Part shown: piece by piece, positions 4,031-59,069 of the stretch
How the letters are laid out: each line of letters starts with the position of its first letter
Position numbering within the stretch: the first letter of the stretch is position 1
Origin: Candidatus Nanoarchaeia archaeon
GTDB taxonomy: Archaea > Nanobdellota > Nanobdellia > Pacearchaeales > GW2011-AR1
Direction of reading: 5' to 3'
DNA: 64,000 nt
Assembly (NCBI GenBank): GCA_035283785.1
Contig: DATETG010000005.1
Span: 2,902 to 66,901, forward strand
Made by a program: the position numbers and the translations under genes
Notes under the pieces: generated by a model
The model's input: the letters and a program-made list of their open reading frames with translations, nothing else
The model's database searches: none
Told to the model about the DNA's origin: nothing

Positions 4031-5194
4031 GTGCTCCATAAGGTTTATGAATCTTTTTTTTCAAGGATTAAAATGAAAAAAGTTGCAATAATCATCGGAA
4101 CTAGGGCAGAATTCATTAAAACAATGCCGATAATGCTTGAATTGAAAAAAAGAAAAATTCCTTACTCTTTTATCCACACTGGACAACATAGTCTGAAAGA
4201 TTTGTGTGAAAAATTTGAAATCAAAAAACCCGACTTTGTTTTGACGCCCGCACCAAGTAAAAGCACCAAATTTTTTGCCCGCCATATTCGTGCTGCTTTT
4301 TGGAATTTAGGACTAATATTTTCCATAAAAAGAGTCATCAAAAAGATAAATCCGGACTATGTCATCTATCATGGAGATACTATGACAACAGCCTCTGCAT
4401 CGATAGCATCTTCTAAGATGTTGAACCCGTCTAAAAAATATAAAAATATCCACTTGGAAGCCGGATTGAGAAGCGGAAATTTGTTTGAGCCTTTCCCTGA
4501 AGAAATTTCCAGAATAATTGCAGACAGATTTTCCGAAGTTTTGTTTGCAGTTTCCGAGAGGAGCAAAAATAATCTAAGAAGATATAAAAAGTCTAAGAAG
4601 ATAATCCTCACCGGAAATACCATCATTGACTCTGTAGATGTTTCATACAAAAAAGCATTGAAAGAAAAAATAAAAGTGTTCTCAAATAAAAAGTTTGCAT
4701 TGATATCCATACATCGACACGAAAACATAAAAAATAAAAAACGCCTGGAAAAAATTGTTAAAATTTTGCTTTCATTAAACATACCTTCTTATTTTCCATT
4801 GTATGACAATACCAAGGAAAAATTGATAAAATTCGGGCTTTACAAGAAATTAATAGAGAACAAAAATATAACGATTCTGGAATACATAGACTATGTTAAT
4901 TTCATATATCAATTAAAAAACTGTTCTCTGCTTATTTGCGACGGAGGTTCCATTCAAGAAGAGAGTCTTGTGTTTGGAAAGCCATGTATAATACTCAGAA
5001 ATTTTACAGAAAGGCAGGAAGGATTGGAATCAAATTTTCAATTTTTGTCCAAGCTTAACGTGAAAAAAACAGTATACAAAATAAACGAATATCTATCCAA
5101 AGATTTTAAAGTTAAAAAATTCAAAAATCCCTATGGAAACATTGGATTAAGCGAAAAAATAGTTGATCTTATTCAAAATGATAAAAATTATTGA
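4031..5194 (+). CDS. wecB: UDP-N-acetylglucosamine 2-epimerase (non-hydrolysing)
   Basis: N-terminus VAIIIGTRAEFIKTMPIM...HTGQH is typical of UDP-GlcNAc 2-epimerases. Length 387 aa. Confidence 0.8.
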   Translation: MLHKVYESFFSRIKMKKVAIIIGTRAEFIKTMPIMLELKKRKIPYSFIHTGQHSLKDLCEKFEIKKPDFVLTPAPSKSTKFFARHIRAAFWNLGLIFSIKRVIKKINPDYVIYHGDTMTTASASIASSKMLNPSKKYKNIHLEAGLRSGNLFEPFPEEISRIIADRFSEVLFAVSERSKNNLRRYKKSKKIILTGNTIIDSVDVSYKKALKEKIKVFSNKKFALISIHRHENIKNKKRLEKIVKILLSLNIPSYFPLYDNTKEKLIKFGLYKKLIENKNITILEYIDYVNFIYQLKNCSLLICDGGSIQEESLVFGKPCIILRNFTERQEGLESNFQFLSKLNVKKTVYKINEYLSKDFKVKKFKNPYGNIGLSEKIVDLIQNDKNY

Positions 5195-6038
5195 ATCCCT
5201 TTCATGGATTCCCTATAAAACAGCGAAAATGTTTGGAAAACGTAAAAACGATTTTCTGATCTTGGATCTTGAGAAGATAGGAATAAAAAAGAGATTTAAG
5301 TTTAATACTACAAAAACAGACGAAGGTTTGTCATCACAATTAAAAACTTTTGGTTTTAGAGAACCTGTAAATCTGGAGTATTATCACAAATTCGTTGAAA
5401 AAAACGACAAGGTTCTCGATATAGGGGCGAACATAGGATTATTTACGATTTTGAGTGAAAATGCAAAAGAAATTATTTGTGTTGAACCGCTTAAACAGGC
5501 AATTCCTCTGCTTAAGAAAAATATAAATGACAACAATCTGATGGAAAAAACAAAAATAATAAACGCTGCTGTTGGTAAAAAAGGGAAATTGATAATATCC
5601 GTTGACGAGCAGCTGAATCTTTCAAGAATAGTCAGCAAGAAAACAAAAAATTCCTACGAAGTAAAAAGTATGGAATTAATGGATCTGACAAAAAGATATG
5701 ATTCAAATCTTTTAAGAATGGACGTAGAAGGATATGAGTATGAAATACTATTTGAGAAACTACCTAAAAGAATAAACAAAATATCTATCGAATTTCACAC
5801 ATTGCTTCTTGGAAAAGAAAAAGTTTCCAAGCTCTTGAATTATCTTGAAAAAGAAGGCTTTAAGCTGAAATATTTTATAGAGGATCTCCCGATAAGGCTT
5901 TATCCTTTTTTCAATATTTTAAAGAAGTTTGGCTTTTTAAGAAGATTTACCTACGTAAAAAGAAACATTTCAATAAATGAATGTTCAAAAATTATCGGCA
6001 AGGGGAGGGCAGTAAAATACTTGTTTCTTCAGAGATAG
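5163..6038 (+). CDS. FkbM-family SAM-dependent methyltransferase
   Basis: LDIGANIGLFT motif characteristic of the FkbM methyltransferase family. Confidence 0.7.
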   Translation: MILFKMIKIIESLSWIPYKTAKMFGKRKNDFLILDLEKIGIKKRFKFNTTKTDEGLSSQLKTFGFREPVNLEYYHKFVEKNDKVLDIGANIGLFTILSENAKEIICVEPLKQAIPLLKKNINDNNLMEKTKIINAAVGKKGKLIISVDEQLNLSRIVSKKTKNSYEVKSMELMDLTKRYDSNLLRMDVEGYEYEILFEKLPKRINKISIEFHTLLLGKEKVSKLLNYLEKEGFKLKYFIEDLPIRLYPFFNILKKFGFLRRFTYVKRNISINECSKIIGKGRAVKYLFLQR

Positions 6039-11992: not shown

Positions 11993-13247
11993 CTTTGTAT
12001 TCACCAATTGAATGTTCTTTCTTTTCTGATTGCAAATCCTTGTTTTTATCTTTTTTCAATATTCCCCACAGATCAACAACATCAATATCTCCAGAAATTT
12101 GCAATTCTTTATAGGCAGAATGAGGAGCCCCGACAATTATGATATCGCTGTTTTTTATCAATTCTTCCTTTGATACAAATCGCGGATCTTTTGCAAATTC
12201 GTCGGAACAAAAAACTTCTGCTCCATGAAACTTAAGGAGCTTTCTTAATTTGAATGAAAGCGAGTCCCTTATATCATCAACTTCTGCCTTAAAAGCCATT
12301 CCCAAGATTCCAACTTTCTTTTTGTTTAAATCGTGTTTTTTCTTCAGGCTCTCTACAATCGTGTTTGGCAGTCCTTCATTTATTATCATCGCTGCGTTAC
12401 CTAATGGAAAATTAGCGTTATCAAAAGCAACCAAATGCATTGTGTCTTTCAACAAACAAGGACCTGCCGAGAAACCTGCACTTGCGAGCGTGCCTGCCCT
12501 GTCATAACCCTCAATTAATGCTTTTCTTATTCTTTCATAATCAAGACCCAGTTTTGTTGCGAGAGTATAAAACTGGTTTGCTACTGAAAATTGAATGTAT
12601 CTAAAAGAATTTGAAAAAAGCTTTATCAATTCCGCCTCTTCAACAATAGTTTCAACAATCTTTGGAGAAACAACGGAAAAAAGTTCTATGGCATCTTTAA
12701 TTGCTTTTTCGCTGAAACCGGAAACTATCTGGGGTAACTCAAGAAGCTCCTTAATGCCATATCCTTGAGCCAATCTTTCGGGACAGTAAGCAACATGAAT
12801 TGGATTCTCTCCAGCGGTCCAACCAAAATTTTTCAACATCTGCCGACAAACACCCGGATAAACAGTGCTTCTTATTATTAATGTCTGACCAGAGTCCAAA
12901 TACTCTGAGATTTCTGAAATTGAGTCCATAAACTTTCTAACTTGCGGATTCATGTATTCATCAATTTCTGTTCCAAGAGTGATTATCACATTTCTTGCGT
13001 ATGAAATGTCTCTCTTATCAAATGATATTTTTAATTTTTTTTTCTCTAGAACATCCTTCAAGATTGGCTCTGCCCCATGTTCTACAAAGGGCATTATCCC
13101 GTTCAATACAAGTTTTGCCTTATTTTCATCGATATCAAACAGACAAACTTCCAATCCCTTTTGAGCAAACACAATTCCTAATGGCAAACCTACATGCCCT
13201 AATCCACCTACAATCAATACATCAAACTTTCTTTCTCTATCTTCCAT
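11949..13247 (-). CDS. wecC: nucleotide-sugar 6-dehydrogenase (UDP-ManNAc/UDP-Glc dehydrogenase family, WecC-like)
   Basis: FDVLIVGGLGHVGLPLG NAD-binding N-terminus. Central and C-terminal UDPG/MGDP dehydrogenase domains. Start set at the internal Met (MEDRERKFDV). Confidence 0.8.
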   Translation of the reverse strand: MEDRERKFDVLIVGGLGHVGLPLGIVFAQKGLEVCLFDIDENKAKLVLNGIMPFVEHGAEPILKDVLEKKKLKISFDKRDISYARNVIITLGTEIDEYMNPQVRKFMDSISEISEYLDSGQTLIIRSTVYPGVCRQMLKNFGWTAGENPIHVAYCPERLAQGYGIKELLELPQIVSGFSEKAIKDAIELFSVVSPKIVETIVEEAELIKLFSNSFRYIQFSVANQFYTLATKLGLDYERIRKALIEGYDRAGTLASAGFSAGPCLLKDTMHLVAFDNANFPLGNAAMIINEGLPNTIVESLKKKHDLNKKKVGILGMAFKAEVDDIRDSLSFKLRKLLKFHGAEVFCSDEFAKDPRFVSKEELIKNSDIIIVGAPHSAYKELQISGDIDVVDLWGILKKDKNKDLQSEKKEHSIGEYKDEKYPYHRELGKPW

Positions 13248-27137: not shown

Positions 27138-27185
27138 GCTTCACCTACTAAACATAAAGCCAATTGGTTTAAAAGAATTGTGAAC

Positions 27186-50720: not shown

Positions 50721-51491
50721 TTAACAAATCCCCCTCTCATTCAACTTCTTCTGAACATGGTTAAACAACGTTGAGGAAATCAAAGCTTGGTGGAAGCCAA
50801 TATGAATTTGTCCGTCAAACTTTATTTTTCCTAGATAAGTTTGGTTTTTTAGAATTTTTTTCAATCCATTAACTGAGAGATTGTGTTTTTTTGATAACTG
50901 GGTGAGAGAGATATTATTATTCAAAAATTCCTGGAAAAGTTCTCCTACAATATAAGAGTCTTCTTTTGGAACTAATTTTTTGTCAACTATTTTATAGCCG
51001 AAGGGCGCCCTTGAGATGGGGTTTCCTTCTCTAGCTTTTTTATCAAGAGAGAATTTAGTTCTTTCTCCGGTGACATTTCTTTCAAATTCTGCAAAAGCTG
51101 AAATAATATGGAACATAAGTTTACCTGATGCACTTGTAGTTTCTATTTTATCTTGAAGGGAAACAAAATCTACTCCCCACTCCTTAAGCTTTGCAATTGT
51201 ATCTATCAAATCTTTTAATGAACGTGAAAACCTATCAAGTTTGTAAATAAAAATTGCCTGGATTTTTCTGTTTTTTGCATCTTCCAAAAGATTTCTCATC
51301 TCAGGTCTTCCTTTAATGTCTTTTGCCGATTTTCCCTCATCCCTATAAACTTTGAAAATATCATAACCTAAAGCAGATGCATAATTTTTTAGTGCTTCCT
51401 CCTGTGCTGAAAGAGAAATTCCTTGTCTTGCCTGTTCTTCTGTTGAAACGCGAATATAAATTGCTGCCTGTGATTTTGAATTTTCTGCCAT
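50721..51491 (-). CDS. serine recombinase (resolvase/invertase family)
   Basis: N-terminus AAIYIRVSTEEQ...GISLSAQ...LDRFSRS matches the catalytic-Ser resolvase domain (YxRVSTxxQ, D..SR). A C-terminal ~100-aa extension follows. Confidence 0.85.
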   Translation of the reverse strand: MAENSKSQAAIYIRVSTEEQARQGISLSAQEEALKNYASALGYDIFKVYRDEGKSAKDIKGRPEMRNLLEDAKNRKIQAIFIYKLDRFSRSLKDLIDTIAKLKEWGVDFVSLQDKIETTSASGKLMFHIISAFAEFERNVTGERTKFSLDKKAREGNPISRAPFGYKIVDKKLVPKEDSYIVGELFQEFLNNNISLTQLSKKHNLSVNGLKKILKNQTYLGKIKFDGQIHIGFHQALISSTLFNHVQKKLNERGIC

Positions 51492-51723
51492 TTTCCTCTT
51501 TTTAGTGTGAACTTAGACCATTAAAGTTAAGGTGCACGTTACCTAAGAGGACACTAAGTATATAAATTTTACGTTGAAAAACAGGGTTTTTAGGGCCTAA
51601 AGGGCAAAATGGGATTCATACAGTATAAATTGCGTGGAGTTCTTATGTGTGAGTTTATTTTTGGAGACTTTTGTATACTTAGACTATCTAAGTGAACAAC
51701 TCAAAGGATAAATTTGAAAAAAT

Positions 51724-52020
51724 TTAATGAAGAGAATTGACCTCTTTCTGAAGAAGCTCTGCATAAAAACCCAAACTGGTGTAGAGATTTCCCGTTGTGG
51801 GATAATCTTGATATTGTTTAAATCTTTCTTTTATATGTGCACCTTTAAATGAGAGTGTTCCTGCTTTCAAATCGATTTCAACTAGGGATGCAAGCAGGCT
51901 CTTTACATTTTTTTCCGCCAGTTTGTTCTGTAATTCAACTATTCTATTTGTGGCTTCATCAAAGGCTCTTCTAACATCTGTTTCTGCAAGTTTTCCACAA
52001 TATTCTGCAAACTGTCCCAT
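51724..52020 (-). CDS. hypothetical protein (98 aa)
   Basis: ORF preceded by the shared TGTGAACTTAGG motif. No motif recognised. Confidence 0.3.
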   Translation of the reverse strand: MGQFAEYCGKLAETDVRRAFDEATNRIVELQNKLAEKNVKSLLASLVEIDLKAGTLSFKGAHIKERFKQYQDYPTTGNLYTSLGFYAELLQKEVNSLH

Positions 52021-52131
52021 TCTTTATCTTAAAAAGTAGGATTTAAAAAATTTGTGATATGTGAACTTAGGTAACCTAAGTTAAAGAGAGATGGAACTAA
52101 CCGAAAATATAGTAATCCTGAGTACATCTAC

Positions 52132-52566
52132 TCAAGAGATTGTTTTTTCGTGAATTTCTCTGAGGATCTCGTCTTTTTTTGGAGAAAACTTGCTGACAAG
52201 AACAATACCTATAACTGCGACAAATGTTGTGATCAGGGTCGAGTAAAGAATTCCAAAAGATTCTGACGCAGGAAATCTGAAAAAGTCAACTATATGGGTC
52301 GTGTAGTTCACGATGGTGTCTCTCCAAACAAGTGCCAGCAAAAAACCAAAGGCCGCAACCACTGCGGTAATAACCTGTTTTTTTACTTCCTGTTCAAAGA
52401 CCTTTATGGATTTTAGTGAAAGATCCAAGGCAAATTTTGTTTTTTCTTTCTGCTTTGCAAGTTCCTGCTGTAACTTATTTATTTGCTGACCTTGAATCTC
52501 ATCGACACTGGAGTGTTTTTCAAGTTCTTGCTTTATCTCTGTTATTTGTTTTTTTGAAATTTCCAT
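52132..52566 (-). CDS. hypothetical coiled-coil protein with two C-terminal TM helices
   Basis: N-terminal Q/E/K-rich heptad region, then AVVAAFGFLLALVW and LITTFVAVIGIVLV TM segments. Confidence 0.3.
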   Translation of the reverse strand: MEISKKQITEIKQELEKHSSVDEIQGQQINKLQQELAKQKEKTKFALDLSLKSIKVFEQEVKKQVITAVVAAFGFLLALVWRDTIVNYTTHIVDFFRFPASESFGILYSTLITTFVAVIGIVLVSKFSPKKDEILREIHEKTIS

Positions 52567-52665
52567 GAGAAAAATTAAAATAAAATTGCTTCTTAAATTA
52601 TTATAATTATTCTTAAGGAGTGATCTGTCCTTTTTGTGAACTTAGGACAGCTTAGTTCATGTACG

Positions 52666-52717
52666 GGTGTTTAAAAGGTAAACAGGTGTTTGTGGGTGTT
52701 TAAACAGGTGTTTAAAA
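52666..52717. repeat. iteron-like array: 4 direct copies of GGTGTTT(AAA) at 10-19 nt spacing in a divergent promoter region
   Basis: GGTGTTTAAAA at 52666, CAGGTGTTTGTG at 52685, GGTGTTTAAAC at 52695, CAGGTGTTTAAAA at 52707. Further copies in both orientations lie at 53090-53131 inside the downstream ORF. Confidence 0.6.
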
Positions 52718-52857: not shown

Positions 52858-53454
52858 ATGTTCTGGTGGTTTTCTGGGAAAAAAGAGGTCGAACGAGTCA
52901 GGGAAGATGTTAAGGAAAGTTTTGAGTTAGTAAAAAAAGACATGAATGATCTTGGAGAATGGATTAAGCATCTTAACTCCCACAAGGAAATGCATAAAAA
53001 AGATATCGAGAGTATAAGGGATATTTTATCGTCGATAAAGAAAGACGTTGATGAAATTAAAAATTCATTTGAAAGTCAAGAAAGTACTGAAACACCTGTG
53101 GTGTTTAAAACACCGAAACGGGTGTTTAAAAAACAAACAGCTGTTTATGCTGTTCAAACAGCTGTTCAAACAGCTGTTCAAACACCCAAATTAGAACATT
53201 TCTCAATAACAGAAAGAGCGATTCTCTGGATTTTGTTAAACACAGACATGAAGCTGAGTTATGAAGATATTGCATCAATACTCGGAAAAGAGAGATCAAC
53301 AATAAGAGGTCAAATTAATACCATAAAACAGAAAAGTGAGGGCTTAATAATGGAAACTTCGGAGAAAAATAATAAGAAAAGAGTGTTTATACCTGAAAAT
53401 ATGAAAGAAAAACTCCTCAAAAAGGCAAAAGTGAGAGTTAAAAAAAGGAAATAA
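52858..53454 (+). CDS. coiled-coil plus C-terminal winged-HTH DNA-binding protein, with a (TAVQ)n low-complexity linker
   Basis: N-terminal heptad-rich region. The linker AVYAVQTAVQTAVQT is encoded by a 12-nt tandem palindrome. The C-terminus ERAILWILLNTDMKLSYEDIASILGKERSTIRGQINTIKQK is HTH-like. Confidence 0.45.
   Translation: MFWWFSGKKEVERVREDVKESFELVKKDMNDLGEWIKHLNSHKEMHKKDIESIRDILSSIKKDVDEIKNSFESQESTETPVVFKTPKRVFKKQTAVYAVQTAVQTAVQTPKLEHFSITERAILWILLNTDMKLSYEDIASILGKERSTIRGQINTIKQKSEGLIMETSEKNNKKRVFIPENMKEKLLKKAKVRVKKRK
53136..53183. repeat. tandem 12-nt repeat CAAACAGCTGTT (about 3 copies), each containing the perfect palindrome AACAGCTGTT
   Basis: Direct reading at 53136-53183. It is in frame within CDS 52858..53454. 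Confidence 0.7.
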
Positions 53455-53629: not shown

Positions 53630-54313
<684 letters not shown>

Positions 54314-55590: not shown

Positions 55591-56108
55591 GGGTCACCCC
55601 GCGGTTTCGTGTGGAAAGGTTTAAAAAGAAAATTCAAATTTTTTATATTTATTATTAATTTAAAAAAATTTATATTATATACTATATACTTATTACTTAT
55701 TATATTATATATTTATTAATATTGTATATTTATTAATACTACACAATTTTATGATACCTCCATTTATATTACACTGTTATCATATCATACAATTTTATTA
55801 GACAACTGTTGGTATTCTATAGCTATATTATCCTTGTCCAGTCTACAATTTTATTTTGTGTTATAAACTTATTACTTTGTTTGTTTGTGTTATATAATTC
55901 GTACACCTTGTTGTGTAGGATCACTGTAGGTCAATTTTATTGTGTAAGGTAGAGTTTTTGGATTCTCTATCTTCTCCCTTTGTACCTCCATGTCTCTCTC
56001 ACTTTTTTTTGCATTTCACATTCTGTTCTCACTTTACCCTTTGTTCTTCTGATTTTATTTTTTCCCGCGTCTAACTAATCTTTGAAAAATAACATTTCCA
56101 CAGGAAAC
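55591..56108. other. oriC: chromosomal replication origin (oriC): a full ORB-like element, an AT-rich unwinding region, and a mini-ORB, directly upstream of orc1/cdc6
   Basis: ORB-like element at 55591-55619 (reverse complement: CCTTTCCACACGAAACCGCGGGGTGACC, close to the archaeal ORB consensus TTCCA..GAAAC....GGGG). Extreme AT-rich repetitive DUE at about 55640-55900. Dyad mini-ORB TTTCCACAGGAAAC at 56095-56108. The orc1/cdc6 start lies at 56220. Confidence 0.6.
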
Positions 56109-56219
56109 ATTGGTGTCTTTCTTTTTTAGTAGTCATAATCCTTTATATACCATTCAAGTTTAATATCGAGTATAAATTTTTATTTTCCTAAGTTTCTATA
56201 GGAAATAAGGGTGTGACAC

Positions 56220-57458
56220 ATGGCAAATCAACTAGACAAAATATTTGAATCCTTTGACAAAAACTTTATTTTCAAAGACAAATCTGCACTGCAGATAAAT
56301 CACCAGCCAAAAGAGATAATCTACCGCGACGAGCAAATCAATCAAATAGCATCTATTCTTGCGCCGATTTTGAGGGGTGAAAGGCCGAGCAACCTTTTCC
56401 TTTATGGAAAAACGGGAACCGGAAAAACACTTTCAATAAAGCATGTCCGAGAGCATCTTCTAAAAAGAGTGAAAGAAGATGTTGGCTTCCAGCTGAGAAT
56501 AGAGTATCTTAATTGCAAATTAAAAAAAGTATCCGACACGGAGTACAGGATTTTAGCAGAGTTGATACGAAAAATGGGTGGTCAAGTTCCTACAACTGGC
56601 TTACCAACAGAATCTGTTTACAATAAATTTATAGAGATAGTTGATGAAAAAAAACAACTGGTAGTTTTGATACTTGATGAAATTGACTACACTGTTAAAA
56701 AAATATCGGATGACTTTTTGTATAATCTGACTAGATTAAACTCGGAATTGTCAAAAGCACAGATTTCCATTGTAGGAATAAGCAATGACCTGACTTTTTT
56801 AGAGAGTGTGGACGCAAGAGTAAGAAGCTCTCTTTCAGAAGAAGAAGTGATCTTCCCCCCTTATAATGCCGTTCAACTGAAAGAAATTCTAAAGAAAAGG
56901 GCAGACGAAGTTTTCAAACCAAATGTGGTTAATGAAGGGGTTGTTGAGAAGTGTGCAGCATACGCGGCACGCTCTCATGGTGATGCCCGTCGCGCCCTTG
57001 ATTTGTTGAGAGTTGCAGGAGAACTTTCAGAGAGAGAAGGTTCCAAGAAGATTCTGTTGGCACACATCGATGCTGCAAATGAAAAGATTGAGAGAGACAA
57101 GATTCTTGATGTAGTAAAATCCGAGCCAAAGCAATTCCAGTATGTTTTGTACTCAATAATCAAACTCTCGGAAAAAAGCAATCAAAAAAAACTTTCCCAA
57201 AAAAATGAAAGAGAATACTCACTGTTCACGGGAGAAATCTACAACTATTACAGAATGTTGTGTGAAAGAGACAAAATGGAAATTCTTACGCAGAGAAGAG
57301 TGAGTGATGTAATTCAGGAATTTGACATGTTAGGAATAATAAATGTAAGAGTCATATCAAAAGGGCGCGGAGGAAGGATGAGAGAAGTTAAACTGGCAGT
57401 TTCACCCCCAATAGTTGATAAAGTAAAACAAATAATAGAAGAGTCGCTTTTCAAATAG
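56220..57458 (+). CDS. cdc6: Orc1/Cdc6 replication initiator
   Basis: AAA+ Walker A LFLYGKTGTGKT, Walker B LILDEID, and a C-terminal winged-helix domain. 412 aa. Confidence 0.95.
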   Translation: MANQLDKIFESFDKNFIFKDKSALQINHQPKEIIYRDEQINQIASILAPILRGERPSNLFLYGKTGTGKTLSIKHVREHLLKRVKEDVGFQLRIEYLNCKLKKVSDTEYRILAELIRKMGGQVPTTGLPTESVYNKFIEIVDEKKQLVVLILDEIDYTVKKISDDFLYNLTRLNSELSKAQISIVGISNDLTFLESVDARVRSSLSEEEVIFPPYNAVQLKEILKKRADEVFKPNVVNEGVVEKCAAYAARSHGDARRALDLLRVAGELSEREGSKKILLAHIDAANEKIERDKILDVVKSEPKQFQYVLYSIIKLSEKSNQKKLSQKNEREYSLFTGEIYNYYRMLCERDKMEILTQRRVSDVIQEFDMLGIINVRVISKGRGGRMREVKLAVSPPIVDKVKQIIEESLFK

Positions 57459-59069
57459 ATGGATTCAAAAGAGATAATTAATTTTTGCATAGAAAAGGGG
57501 ATTTTGATAGATAAGGAGCTCTTGAATATTTTTGAAGATGCCAATGATATCAATTCCGTAAAGATTATTTTAGAAAAAATCCTGGAACAGACCTCACAAA
57601 AGATAATAACAAAAAAAATCTTCAGTCAGAATCGCGAGCATGTTTACAAAGTTTTTTCCTCTCTCCCAAATGAACAGAAGAACAATCTGGATAAATTGAG
57701 AATAAACCTAGGACTTAGCATAGAAATTTCTAGAGAGGGTCATCAACCAAAAATTCTTGATGAACAAGCAGTGTCTGAGAATGAACTCCGAAACGTTAAA
57801 GTCCTCTCTTCTAGCCTTCCCCCCACAAAAAAGCTAGAAGTCAAAGATTTTTCAAAACACTTTTCCCAGAGATATGTCGATCTGAGGAAAATTCTCCAGG
57901 AGCATCCTGGACTTTCAAATTTAATTTCTATAAACAAACTTTCAAAAGCGAATCAGGAATTCTCAATCATAGGAATCATTTACAACAAAACTACAACGAA
58001 AAATAATAACCTTATTTTTGAAGTTGAAGATTTGACAGGGAGGATGAAAGTGATAGTCACACAGAAAAATAAGGAAGTTTATCAAAATGCAGAGAATCTT
58101 CCGTTGGATTCGGTAGTTGCATTTAAAGGCTCCGGAAACAGCGAAATACTTTTTGTCGACGAGGTTATTCTCCCAGATGCCTTTTTACTCGAAAGAAAAA
58201 AATCACTGAATGACGAGTGGGCATTGTTTATAAGCGATGTTCACGTCGGAAGCCGTAACTTCATGGAAGAAAATTTTCTAAAATTTATTGATTATCTCAA
58301 CGGAAATATTCCGGGCACTCCTGAAGCAAAAAAGATAAAATATCTTTTTATTGTCGGAGATTTAGTGGCAGGTGTAGGAGTTTATCCTAATCAGGAAAAG
58401 GAGCTTGCAATAAAGGACATTGAAGGTCAATACACAAAAATGGCAGAACTTCTTTCAAAGATAAGGAGAGATATAAGAATAATCATAATTCCTGGCAATC
58501 ATGATTGTGTCAGATTAATGGAGCCGCAACCAATACTGGACGAAAAATATGCATGGGCACTCTATAATCTGGAGAACGTAACTCTCGTGCCGAATCCTTC
58601 CTTGGTGAATATCGGTTCAACAGAAACATTTGAGGGATTCAATGTTTTGATGTATCATGGTTTTTCCTACTTTTACTATGTTCATAACATTCCAAGCCTT
58701 ATAGAGGGAGAAGCATCAAAATCTCCCGACAAGGTCATGGCTTATTTGTTGAAGAACAGACATATTGCTCCAACACATGCCTCAAATCAGTATCTCCCTT
58801 CAGAACAAGATGGGTTGATGATCCGTATTGTTCCGGACATATTCGTTTCAGGACATACACACAAAAATTCAATTTCGTATTACAACAACATTCTGATCAT
58901 TTCCAACGCCTGCTGGGAAGAATTGATGCCCTATCAAGAGAAAATGGGATTTGAATCGGATTATTGCAAAGTCCCGATGTTTAATCTAAAGACTCGCGAG
59001 ACAAAAATCCTGGATTTTTTAGGGGAAAAGAAAAAAAGCAATCCTGAGGAAATTTTAAATGAAAATTAA
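57459..59069 (+). CDS. polB: DNA polymerase II (PolD) small subunit DP1
   Basis: C-terminal calcineurin-like phosphoesterase motifs (FISDVHVGS, GDLVAG, IPGNHD, GHTH), with N-terminal and OB domains. Confidence 0.9.
   Translation: MDSKEIINFCIEKGILIDKELLNIFEDANDINSVKIILEKILEQTSQKIITKKIFSQNREHVYKVFSSLPNEQKNNLDKLRINLGLSIEISREGHQPKILDEQAVSENELRNVKVLSSSLPPTKKLEVKDFSKHFSQRYVDLRKILQEHPGLSNLISINKLSKANQEFSIIGIIYNKTTTKNNNLIFEVEDLTGRMKVIVTQKNKEVYQNAENLPLDSVVAFKGSGNSEILFVDEVILPDAFLLERKKSLNDEWALFISDVHVGSRNFMEENFLKFIDYLNGNIPGTPEAKKIKYLFIVGDLVAGVGVYPNQEKELAIKDIEGQYTKMAELLSKIRRDIRIIIIPGNHDCVRLMEPQPILDEKYAWALYNLENVTLVPNPSLVNIGSTETFEGFNVLMYHGFSYFYYVHNIPSLIEGEASKSPDKVMAYLLKNRHIAPTHASNQYLPSEQDGLMIRIVPDIFVSGHTHKNSISYYNNILIISNACWEELMPYQEKMGFESDYCKVPMFNLKTRETKILDFLGEKKKSNPEEILNEN

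Follow-up and report, generated by a model that had tools for sequence, protein, structure and literature searches.

The repeated element and its locus

The 64,000-nucleotide stretch of low-GC archaeal DNA analysed here and referred to as the window (contig DATETG010000005.1 of a Candidatus Nanoarchaeia archaeon, positions 2,902 to 66,901) harbours a gene for a serine recombinase of 256 aa that is preceded, over approximately 1.2 kb, by a group of short, related dyad sequences. Two further leftward genes lie upstream of the recombinase gene, an open reading frame (ORF) of 98 aa and a gene for a DUF5654 membrane protein of 144 aa; the group is bounded by a divergent gene for a 198-aa protein with a coiled coil and a helix-turn-helix (HTH), designated HTH198. 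The dyads are cis-acting, double-stranded elements that are conserved across a large archaeal group, lie close to the recombinase gene and overlap its promoter. As judged from the sequences, they almost certainly constitute a functional protein-binding element, and what they make up has the appearance of a recombinase/operator system not described before, and not that of a repeat arisen by chance.

An initial annotation of the window had pointed out three copies of a 12-mer, each 10–75 nt 5' of a leftward start codon, and had proposed a common operator coupling expression of the recombinase to the two genes upstream. The sequence TGTGAACTTAG(A/G) is present exactly three times on the + strand, at 51506–51517, 52060–52071 and 52635–52646, which is 1–5 nt from the coordinates first given; no further exact copy exists on either strand of the whole window, and the sole match with one mismatch in the 64 kb is found at 27179. 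The copies precede the start codons of the recombinase gene (ATG at 51491), the 98-aa ORF (52020) and the 144-aa ORF (52566) by 15, 40 and 69 nt, respectively. Direct reading also bears out two finer details of that annotation: AACTTAGGTAACCTAAGTT at 52064–52082 is a perfect 19-bp palindrome of the form 9+1+9, and a TGAACT...AGTTCA arrangement is present at the third copy (52637–52659). A repeat finder located a degenerate fourth copy at 51672–51699, with TGTATACTTAGACTATCTAAGTGAACA at 51672–51698, and all four copies fit the pattern ACTTAG-N5-CTAAGT.

The 12-mer reads as one arm of a larger dyad, with GTNNACTWAGG as the half-site. The complete unit, termed D, spans 25 bp, GTNNACTWAGG-N3-CCTWAGTNNAC (GTNNACTWAGGNNNCCTWAGTNNAC). 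With up to three mismatches allowed, the window contains three D dyads (copies 2, 3 and 4; Table 1), each of which deviates at no more than two positions; 0.01 would be expected by chance, and none of 100 shuffles of the window sequence reached three. These shuffles, the absence of the motif from the remainder of the 64 kb and its strict placement in 80 related loci rule out a chance repeat.

A composite site at the recombinase promoter

Dozens of related genomes have the palindrome ahead of their recombinase genes, where the initial annotation had proposed looking for it. At the recombinase promoter itself it takes a second form, P1, a 26-bp dyad with a CTTAGGG-NN-CCCTAAG core and the full consensus GTNNACTWAGGGNNCCCTWAGTNNAC, which was followed through 81 loci, namely the window and 80 relatives (designated by L numbers below). 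P1 is present in 72 of the 81, over a range of 53–100% identity of the recombinase protein. There it belongs to the composite AAATTTATATA-CTTAGGG-NN-CCCTAAGT...CCCTAAGT(T/G)(C)ACA...AAAGAGGAAAATG, which precedes the recombinase gene or another member of its operon that has been inserted directly ahead of it; its last element, AAAGAGGAAAATG, is conserved in many relatives. P1 is retained in clades with different neighbourhoods, without the HTH198 gene and without an array of D sites.

The dyad is composed of two inverted half-sites of ∼12 bp about an asymmetric 2-bp centre, a geometry typical of serine recombinase sites. In the 72 sites the centre reads CA, TG, CT or AG, with a single TC, and that of L149 is TT; palindromic dinucleotides never occupy this position. 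Of the 72 promoters, all of them predicted from sequence, 58 have a TATA-like box directly abutting P1, and 13 others have one that abuts the second component of the composite, P2.

P2 is a CCTWAGT half-site located 31–33 nt downstream of the right arm of P1 in 70 of the 72 cases, the spacing being precisely 32 nt in 62. The intervening sequence is unrelated between clades, and in one clade P2 forms codons 2–5 of the recombinase gene. As the spacing remains constant although this interval ranges from non-coding DNA to a Shine-Dalgarno sequence and start codon, the constraint points to an action at the DNA level, the separation being equivalent to three helical turns. The clade of L078 displays a reduced version, TATA-P1-ATG alone, from which P2 is absent. 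In the window, the lone half-site closest to the recombinase gene (copy 1) corresponds to P2, and a degenerate P1 occupies the position equivalent to that of its relatives.

Arrays of dyads and their cargo genes

Both dyads are sharply confined in the 80 related loci. With up to three mismatches allowed, 80 D and 68 P1 dyads fall within 3 kb upstream of the recombinase gene (205 kb), and none of either type occurs in the other 628 kb; the motif is thus not frequent elsewhere, either in these loci or in the window. The oriented half-site is ∼12-fold enriched upstream of the recombinase gene, nearly all copies being on the gene strand. Loci of the Pacearchaeota/Woesearchaeota type contain from one to approximately eight sites upstream of the promoter composite (P), nearly all in gene orientation, with the consensus tTAACTWAG-nTaA-CCTAAGTGCACa. 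The centre of D is one base shorter than that of P1, so that the CTWAG pentamers stand 10 rather than 11 nt apart. A fixed three-site architecture, with D at a set distance from P1, was considered and rejected, as the distances are scattered.

The usual neighbourhood begins upstream with a PRC-barrel gene, a gene designated o136, two winged helix-turn-helix (wHTH) genes and the divergent HTH198 gene, and continues with variable small genes and the recombinase gene; a variable stretch and the S9/L13 ribosomal operon follow downstream. HTH198 is found upstream of the recombinase gene in 51 of 80 loci. A second clade occupies a different chromosomal neighbourhood, likewise conserved, in which a wHTH protein of similar build to HTH198, F2, is encoded 1–1.5 kb upstream. 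The cargo between the sites is small and very variable, comprising 134 ORFs in 94 clusters (52 loci), and is framed by syntenic flanks. Its commonest first gene encodes DUF5654, recorded in 19 of the 52 HTH-anchored loci (10 by direct search) and usually placed 70–85 nt beyond the first D site. For the 98-aa ORF, a homologue was found in just one of the 80 related loci (L009, 38% identity, same position), and a search of 5.8 billion proteins returned a single near-identical sequence (98% identity). In 44 of 52 related loci, the interval that separates the HTH198 start from the first D site contains the 8-mer TGTTTAAA, within repeats of the CAAACAGCTGTTTAAAC type that are distinct from D and are possibly an operator for the HTH protein itself or an iteron.

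The D sites of the window lie 10–25 nt upstream of TATA-like boxes. Copy 2, whose form matches that of the dyads in virus contigs, is separated by 10 nt from the downstream box of the 98-aa ORF, a predicted promoter for a leaderless mRNA; a further predicted TATA box is placed at ∼52595–52611, and copy 4 is located 181 nt upstream of the recombinase ATG.

Table 1. Genes, sites and predicted promoter elements at the recombinase locus (window coordinates; sequences in gene sense where so marked)
Feature	Position	Strand	Remarks
Serine recombinase gene, 256 aa	50721..51491	-	Pfam Resolvase 2.4e-43 and partial Recombinase domain
Shine-Dalgarno-like GAGGAAAA	51492..51499	-	Directly 5' of recombinase ATG; read from sequence
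P2 / copy 1, lone half-site	51506..51517	-	TCTAAGTTCACA (gene sense); 5' of recombinase ATG
Degenerate P1	51538..51563	-	ATATACTTAGTG-TC-CTCTTAGGTAAC (gene sense); 4 mismatches to GTNNACTWAGGGNNCCCTWAGTNNAC
Recombinase TATA box (predicted)	51560..51567	-	TTTATATA (gene sense); overlaps outer end of P1 left arm
D dyad, copy 4	51673..51697	-	GTATACTTAGACTATCTAAGTGAAC; 2 mismatches; 26 nt beyond stop of 98-aa ORF
98-aa ORF, variable cargo	51724..52020	-	No Pfam or NCBIfam match
TATA-like TTTTTTAAAT (gene sense)	52041..52050	-	21 nt upstream of 98-aa ORF start; sequence reading
D dyad, copy 2	52061..52085	-	GTGAACTTAGGTAACCTAAGTTAAA; 1 mismatch; includes the perfect 19-bp palindrome
DUF5654 membrane protein gene, 144 aa	52132..52566	-	Pfam DUF5654 2.8e-09
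D dyad, copy 3	52636..52660	-	GTGAACTTAGGACAGCTTAGTTCAT; 2 mismatches; upstream of DUF5654 start; outermost array site
HTH198 gene, 198-aa coiled-coil and HTH protein	52858..53454	+	Divergent, bounds array; weak HTH_11 match

The serine recombinase

The recombinase consists of a catalytic domain, a long helix and the 'recombinase domain' (RD) of large serine recombinases. The zinc-ribbon and coiled-coil domains are missing, and the match of an AlphaFold2 model with structure 4kis is restricted to the RD. Its closest sequence match in the PDB is the catalytic domain of TP901-1 integrase (5.6e-26). The model has a pLDDT (predicted local distance difference test) of 81 and is confident in the C-terminal domain, which superposes on the LI integrase–DNA complex 4kis, the DNA-bound RD of a Listeria large serine recombinase, at 1.9 Å over 123 columns. 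Residues R14, S16, D86, R87 and R90 are at least 97% conserved in 81 sequences of 53–100% identity and invariant in a 28-sequence alignment. Since these catalytic residues are conserved and the C-terminal domain superposes on the RD of 4kis, the enzyme looks catalytically intact and is predicted to bind DNA. The nearest named families are the NCBIfam models CcrB, CcrC and XisF, which are matched over their own N-terminal halves only (133 bits, against a cutoff of 900).

The family is large: species-representative genomes encode at least 466 relatives, and the protein clusters number 1,670, with a uniform length of ∼255 aa. The exact protein of the window is present in 58 contigs, with groundwater and sediment among the sources of this genome. 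The relatives reside mostly in chromosomal neighbourhoods of ultra-small (DPANN) archaea that are conserved within each clade. Virus contigs contain no close relative, only distant homologues of the catalytic domain with at most 47% identity. A location on a mobile element or prophage was ruled out, as gene order is kept and there is no shift in composition, no flanking tRNA and no close virus relative.

Variants of this organization exist. Some genomes accommodate two tandem recombinase genes (L053, 5208–5984 and 5986–6741; L076). At L183 (∼1600–1740) and L230 (∼4390–4480), divergent paralogues of 42–43% identity have a slightly altered palindrome, TAAGGG-WW-CCCTTA, that no longer adjoins the TATA box; canonical P2 and upstream D are retained. 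Within the recombinase gene of the window, at 51001–51012 (+477 from the start), lies a palindrome, AAGGGCGCCCTT, with a loose resemblance to the P1 core. L022, L025 and L026 have it in the same place; it specifies a portion of the conserved RAPFGY motif and is probably no more than a coincidence of coding.

Dyads in viral genomes

The canonical D sequence is present in at least 120 metagenome stretches. Those long enough to be judged are mostly host arrays, with the recombinase gene downstream in 14 of 20 and HTH198 upstream in 35 of 49. Nine metagenome contigs, by their terminase large subunit, portal and major head protein, represent one small tailed-virus family, and 10 of the 12 IMG/VR contigs with exact D belong to the same family. 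These viruses, of ∼11–12 kb and with an HK97-like head protein, probably infect these DPANN archaea. In both sets D is located 150–1,400 nt upstream of the terminase gene. L277 (IMG/VR 3300006733_000119, 11447 nt) and L281 (11986 nt) look complete, given their terminal repeats, and D is the only perfect dyad in each. The family further includes L194, L213, L229, L273–L276, L279, L280 and L282, all with D upstream of terminase.

A second, unrelated virus is represented by L283, a 33.5-kb IMG/VR contig (GC 30%) with a large subunit of the Terminase_3 type. Its D dyad at 12283–12307 stands 31 nt before an ORF resembling a terminase small subunit, and two more (1573 and 2108) precede small ORFs. 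Most D-bearing virus contigs are fragments, and the form that they carry is D, not P1. Two of the contigs, L284 and L226, have genes for distant serine recombinases themselves. No homologue of the HTH proteins of the window was detected in virus contigs. The possibility that P1 is a viral attachment (att) site was discarded: the single IMG/VR match is in an unrelated, GC-rich contig in which no recombinase was detected.

A host-factor promoter or operator fits the viral copies, placed upstream of the packaging operon in two unrelated lineages, somewhat better than does an att site. A cer- or dif-like site, however, would equally present itself as one perfect dyad per complete virus genome.

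Candidate functions of the sites

The explanation favoured here attributes the sites to the adjacent recombinase. The enzyme would recognize dyads of the GTNNACTWAGG half-site by means of its C-terminal RD, and binding at P1 and P2 would shut off its own gene. P1 would be the only plausible crossover site of the catalytically intact enzyme, as in the res, resH and six systems compared below, and crossover there may serve the resolution of chromosome multimers. The D sites, in the window copies 2, 3 and 4, oddly spaced at 25 bp, would be binding-only, and from them the same protein would control the small variable genes between the recombinase gene and HTH198. The recombinase is preferred as binder because it is the only protein always linked to P1 and possesses a suitable conserved DNA-binding domain, because a 26-bp dyad with an asymmetric 2-bp centre suits serine recombinases, and because HTH198 has a repeat of its own. 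We infer the identity of the binder, cleavage at P1 and the action of D on transcription from these sequence patterns. The recombinase is slightly more likely than not to be the binder; that D sites act mainly on transcription is an evenly balanced proposition, and that they are recombination targets appears improbable. The explanation as a whole, autorepression, crossover at P1 and binding-only control at D included, falls a little short of probable.

Several observations weigh against this explanation. The P1 of the window is recognizable, but with four mismatches it escapes a search that allows three. The core of the site is invariant across the whole family, the divergent L078 clade included, which leaves no variation against which changes in the protein could be matched. 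Copy 4 has no gene directly following it, and the D sites of relatives lie ∼55–85 nt upstream of TATA-like boxes, a weak peak that is not the classical position of an archaeal repressor. D-bearing viruses are devoid of a close recombinase homologue. L207 (3890–6914) retains HTH198, its conserved upstream neighbours and approximately nine D-like sites, with no recombinase gene within 7.6 kb downstream. Finally, a trans factor encoded elsewhere, or a wHTH protein of the HTH198 or F2 type, often present within 1–3 kb, could bind instead.

Judged against these findings, the common operator suggested by the initial annotation is partly supported and too narrow. A shared cis-element is indeed tied to the recombinase gene, and at the recombinase promoter it abuts the TATA box, as an operator would. 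The true unit, however, is a dyad of 25 or 26 bp and not the 12-mer, and the copy at the recombinase ATG is merely the downstream half-site of the composite. The two genes said to be coupled to the recombinase are both variable cargo, as their sporadic occurrence in related loci attests; there is a fourth site without a gene directly after it, and the remote position of D in relatives is not that of a classical repressor. Moreover, given the serine-recombinase geometry and the virus copies, a role in recombination is inseparable from a purely transcriptional one.

The last of the points raised above, a different binder, amounts to an explanation in its own right: the sites would be operators of a separate transcription factor, be it HTH198, a related wHTH protein or a factor encoded elsewhere, with the recombinase as just one regulated gene and the viruses borrowing the host factor for a late (packaging) promoter. 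A divergent regulator beside an operator array is a classical arrangement, and HTH198 frequently holds that place in host loci and beside metagenome D sites, with F2 taking a comparable position in the other clade. The persistence in L207 of HTH198 and a long D array without the recombinase gene is readily accommodated, as is D upstream of terminase in two unrelated viral lineages, where a late promoter is expected (31 nt in L283). Against this stand loci in which P1 accompanies the recombinase gene and no HTH198 or F2 homologue is detected within 3–6 kb (L051, L068, L149, L150), the different repeat adjoining HTH198, the never-palindromic 2-bp centre of the 26-bp dyad, which fits recombinase sites, and the lack of homologues of the window's HTH proteins in virus contigs. 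A separate factor is regarded as rather unlikely. An action of the conserved element as RNA, in which the CUUAGGG/CCCUAAG and GUGAAC/GUUCAC repeats would form a hairpin or attenuator in the 5' untranslated region, has been largely refuted and is scarcely tenable. The composite does fold into two hairpins in some relatives (L029, z = −3.1), and the pairs GTGAAC/GTTCAC, GTGCAC/GTGCAC and GTAAAC/GTTTAC co-occur in part. However, P1 lies between TATA and the expected start site and hence would be mostly untranscribed; many hexamer pairs are non-complementary, and covariation of GTGAAC/GTTCAC is partial only. The window fold of copy 1 is not significant (z = −0.56), sequences that follow D are in general not structured (mean z = −0.2, 40 loci), and Rfam returned no match below E = 0.07 and none overlapping a site. 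W bases are changed in one arm only in 14 of 72 P1 sites, breaking the pairing, with no compensatory change, and most D left arms read CTAAG, the same as the right arm; for these two reasons the sites do not appear to be hairpins. An element with a GC stem and an A-rich loop that follows some D sites (L021, L029, L053, L062, L074) was dismissed as not general, in keeping with the same mean z.

The remaining alternative treats D sites as att-like recombination sites. A conserved host 'mini' large serine recombinase, its own site P and the co-oriented D array would form a chromosomal platform near oriC, at which small gene modules and viruses with one matching site are captured, exchanged or resolved; viruses would exploit the enzyme and use their single dyad for integration or genome-multimer resolution. 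The scheme is akin to integrative mobile elements exploiting Xer (IMEX) at dif, to pdif modules or to integron cassettes, except that the recombinase is of the serine type. It is consistent with very variable cargo as opposed to syntenic flanks, with the intact catalytic residues of an enzyme whose nearest named families, all below cutoff, are the cassette and element recombinases CcrB, CcrC and XisF, and with the presence of exactly one perfect dyad in the complete genomes of L277 (123-nt terminal repeat) and L281. In L009, two D units of 66 nt (4868–4932 and 5459–5526), identical at 65 of 66 positions, lie on either side of a 160-aa ORF in reverse orientation; no other array displayed a clear signature resembling insertion. 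Strain-level cassette variation was looked for and not found: exact-protein look-ups with three recombinase variants, covering ∼65 contigs of three species, revealed identical upstream gene order and no variation in cargo. Viral genes are absent from the 80 genome loci and from metagenome loci anchored by the recombinase or HTH198, and an origin of the cargo genes in D-bearing viruses was rejected, as no homology to the virus contigs was found. The odd length of the D dyad (25 bp) is a poor fit to the 2-bp stagger, symmetric in form, that serine recombinases produce, virus contigs are essentially free of the P1 pattern (one match), and the region downstream of the recombinase gene is just as variable with no D site at all. 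Where a homology break can be placed, in L052 and L057, it falls ∼45 nt past the D core and not within D. Taken together, a capture platform is quite improbable. As a separate observation, the sole strain-level difference seen near the recombinase gene, in the marine relatives L133–L140, is just downstream of it, outside the D array, and consists of one 160-aa ORF as opposed to ORFs of 54 and 98 aa.

Relation to known systems

Autoregulated sites of the res type include the res–TnpR pairs of Tn3 and gamma-delta, resH of Sin, six of the beta recombinase and the ParA res of RP4. By analogy, a system that works like res, resH or six with autoregulation, and with a crossover-type subsite of hix/gix dimensions, is favoured here. 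As in those systems, the gene for a serine recombinase has a composite site of its own ahead of it that overlaps the predicted promoter, so that the enzyme would repress itself; in relatives, a dyad crossover-type subsite is accompanied by an extra subsite at fixed spacing, and putative binding-only subsites differ from the crossover subsite in spacer length. The sites described here differ from them in lying in a core archaeal chromosomal neighbourhood near a probable oriC rather than on a transposon or plasmid, in having a TATA-box promoter, in the DNA-binding domain, which is that of large serine recombinases instead of the small HTH of resolvases, in the further sites distributed over 1–3 kb ahead of separate genes, and in the virus copies. 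The hix and gix sites of Hin and Gin are similar in size and build, with 26 bp and two inverted 12-bp half-sites about a 2-bp centre, whereas neither an inverted partner site nor an enhancer or invertible segment was found here and the copies are all directly oriented.

In sequence and fold, the catalytic domain and the recombinase domain of the enzyme are matched best by large serine recombinases (the TP901-1, phiC31, LI and SPbeta integrases, CcrB/CcrC and XisF). Unlike these, the present protein is host-encoded and syntenic rather than encoded by an element, has only 256 aa, and scores well under the family cutoff as stated above; membership in the large-serine-integrase family was ruled out, as two of the four domains are missing. 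Xer/dif-IMEX and the pdif modules of Acinetobacter plasmids share with the present system a conserved host recombinase and site copies on mobile elements and bracketing variable modules, but Xer proteins are tyrosine recombinases and no integrated virus or module movement was observed here. An IMEX system was excluded on the grounds of the wrong recombinase class and the absence of integrated elements from all host loci examined. Integrons with attI and attC offer another parallel, a recombinase gene beside an array that extends to one side only, in which small genes of like orientation alternate with a repeated site. IntI, in contrast, is a tyrosine recombinase acting on folded single-strand attC hairpins, whereas pairing is not conserved in the present sites; the array here is upstream of, and co-directional with, the recombinase gene, and lacks strain-level cassette variation. 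An integron was discounted in view of the serine recombinase and the lack of conserved hairpins.

Archaeal repressors such as MDR1, Phr and those of the TrmB type bind operators between TATA and the start site. P1 is comparable in that it begins inside or next to the TATA box and spans to the expected start site; the differences are that no known archaeal transcription factor family is implicated and that D copies are upstream of TATA-like boxes. Nothing was found in the literature describing this recombinase family, the motif or DUF5654 in archaea.

Significance

The interest of the system derives from its breadth, its definition at base-pair level and the link to viruses. It provides a first functional handle on a large family annotated only as 'recombinase family protein', whose members behave like core genes of Pacearchaeota/Woesearchaeota-type DPANN archaea, organisms that so far can be neither cultivated nor manipulated. 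With the likely DNA target of the family defined to the base pair, binding and recombination assays can be designed. Should the enzyme resolve chromosome dimers or regulate neighbouring membrane-protein genes, a gap in DPANN cell biology would be filled; should it prove active, a small enzyme with a short defined site might become a compact recombination tool. The 25-bp dyad in virus genomes is a sequence marker that ties uncultivated viruses to DPANN hosts, which often lack CRISPR, and hints at viral use of a host recombinase or regulator. The platform, if it existed, would be a serine-recombinase counterpart of Xer/dif-IMEX or integrons and the first in archaea.

Neighbouring genes and further observations

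A contig with none of the usual anchors, L155 (GC 27%), has a tandem pair of perfect D dyads at 1637–1700, spaced by 25 nt and located between two paralogous 322-aa ORFs.

In the window, GGGTGTTTAAA and CAAACAGCTGTT repeats occupy 52665–52716, between the HTH198 start and the first D site, and similar copies lie inside the HTH198 gene at 53099–53187, where the sequence encoding a threefold AVQT repeat resembles them. Tandem peptide repeats are common to HTH198 (52858–53454; AVQT ×3) and a 227-aa wHTH protein encoded at 53630–54313 (TDRQ ×3), and in both they sit between an N-terminal coiled coil and a C-terminal winged helix.

Farther along, inverted boxes resembling origin recognition boxes (ORBs), GGTTTCGTGTGGAAAGG and CATTTCCACAGGAAACA, at 55603–55620 and 56093–56109, flank ∼470 bp of very AT-rich DNA upstream of cdc6. 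A role of the D sites themselves as origin recognition boxes was ruled out in view of this separate, canonical-looking ORB pair. The gene cdc6/orc1 spans 56220–57458 and is followed by that for the small subunit of PolD (57459–59069); the ORB pair beside cdc6 probably marks a replication origin, at a distance of ∼3 kb from the array of sites.

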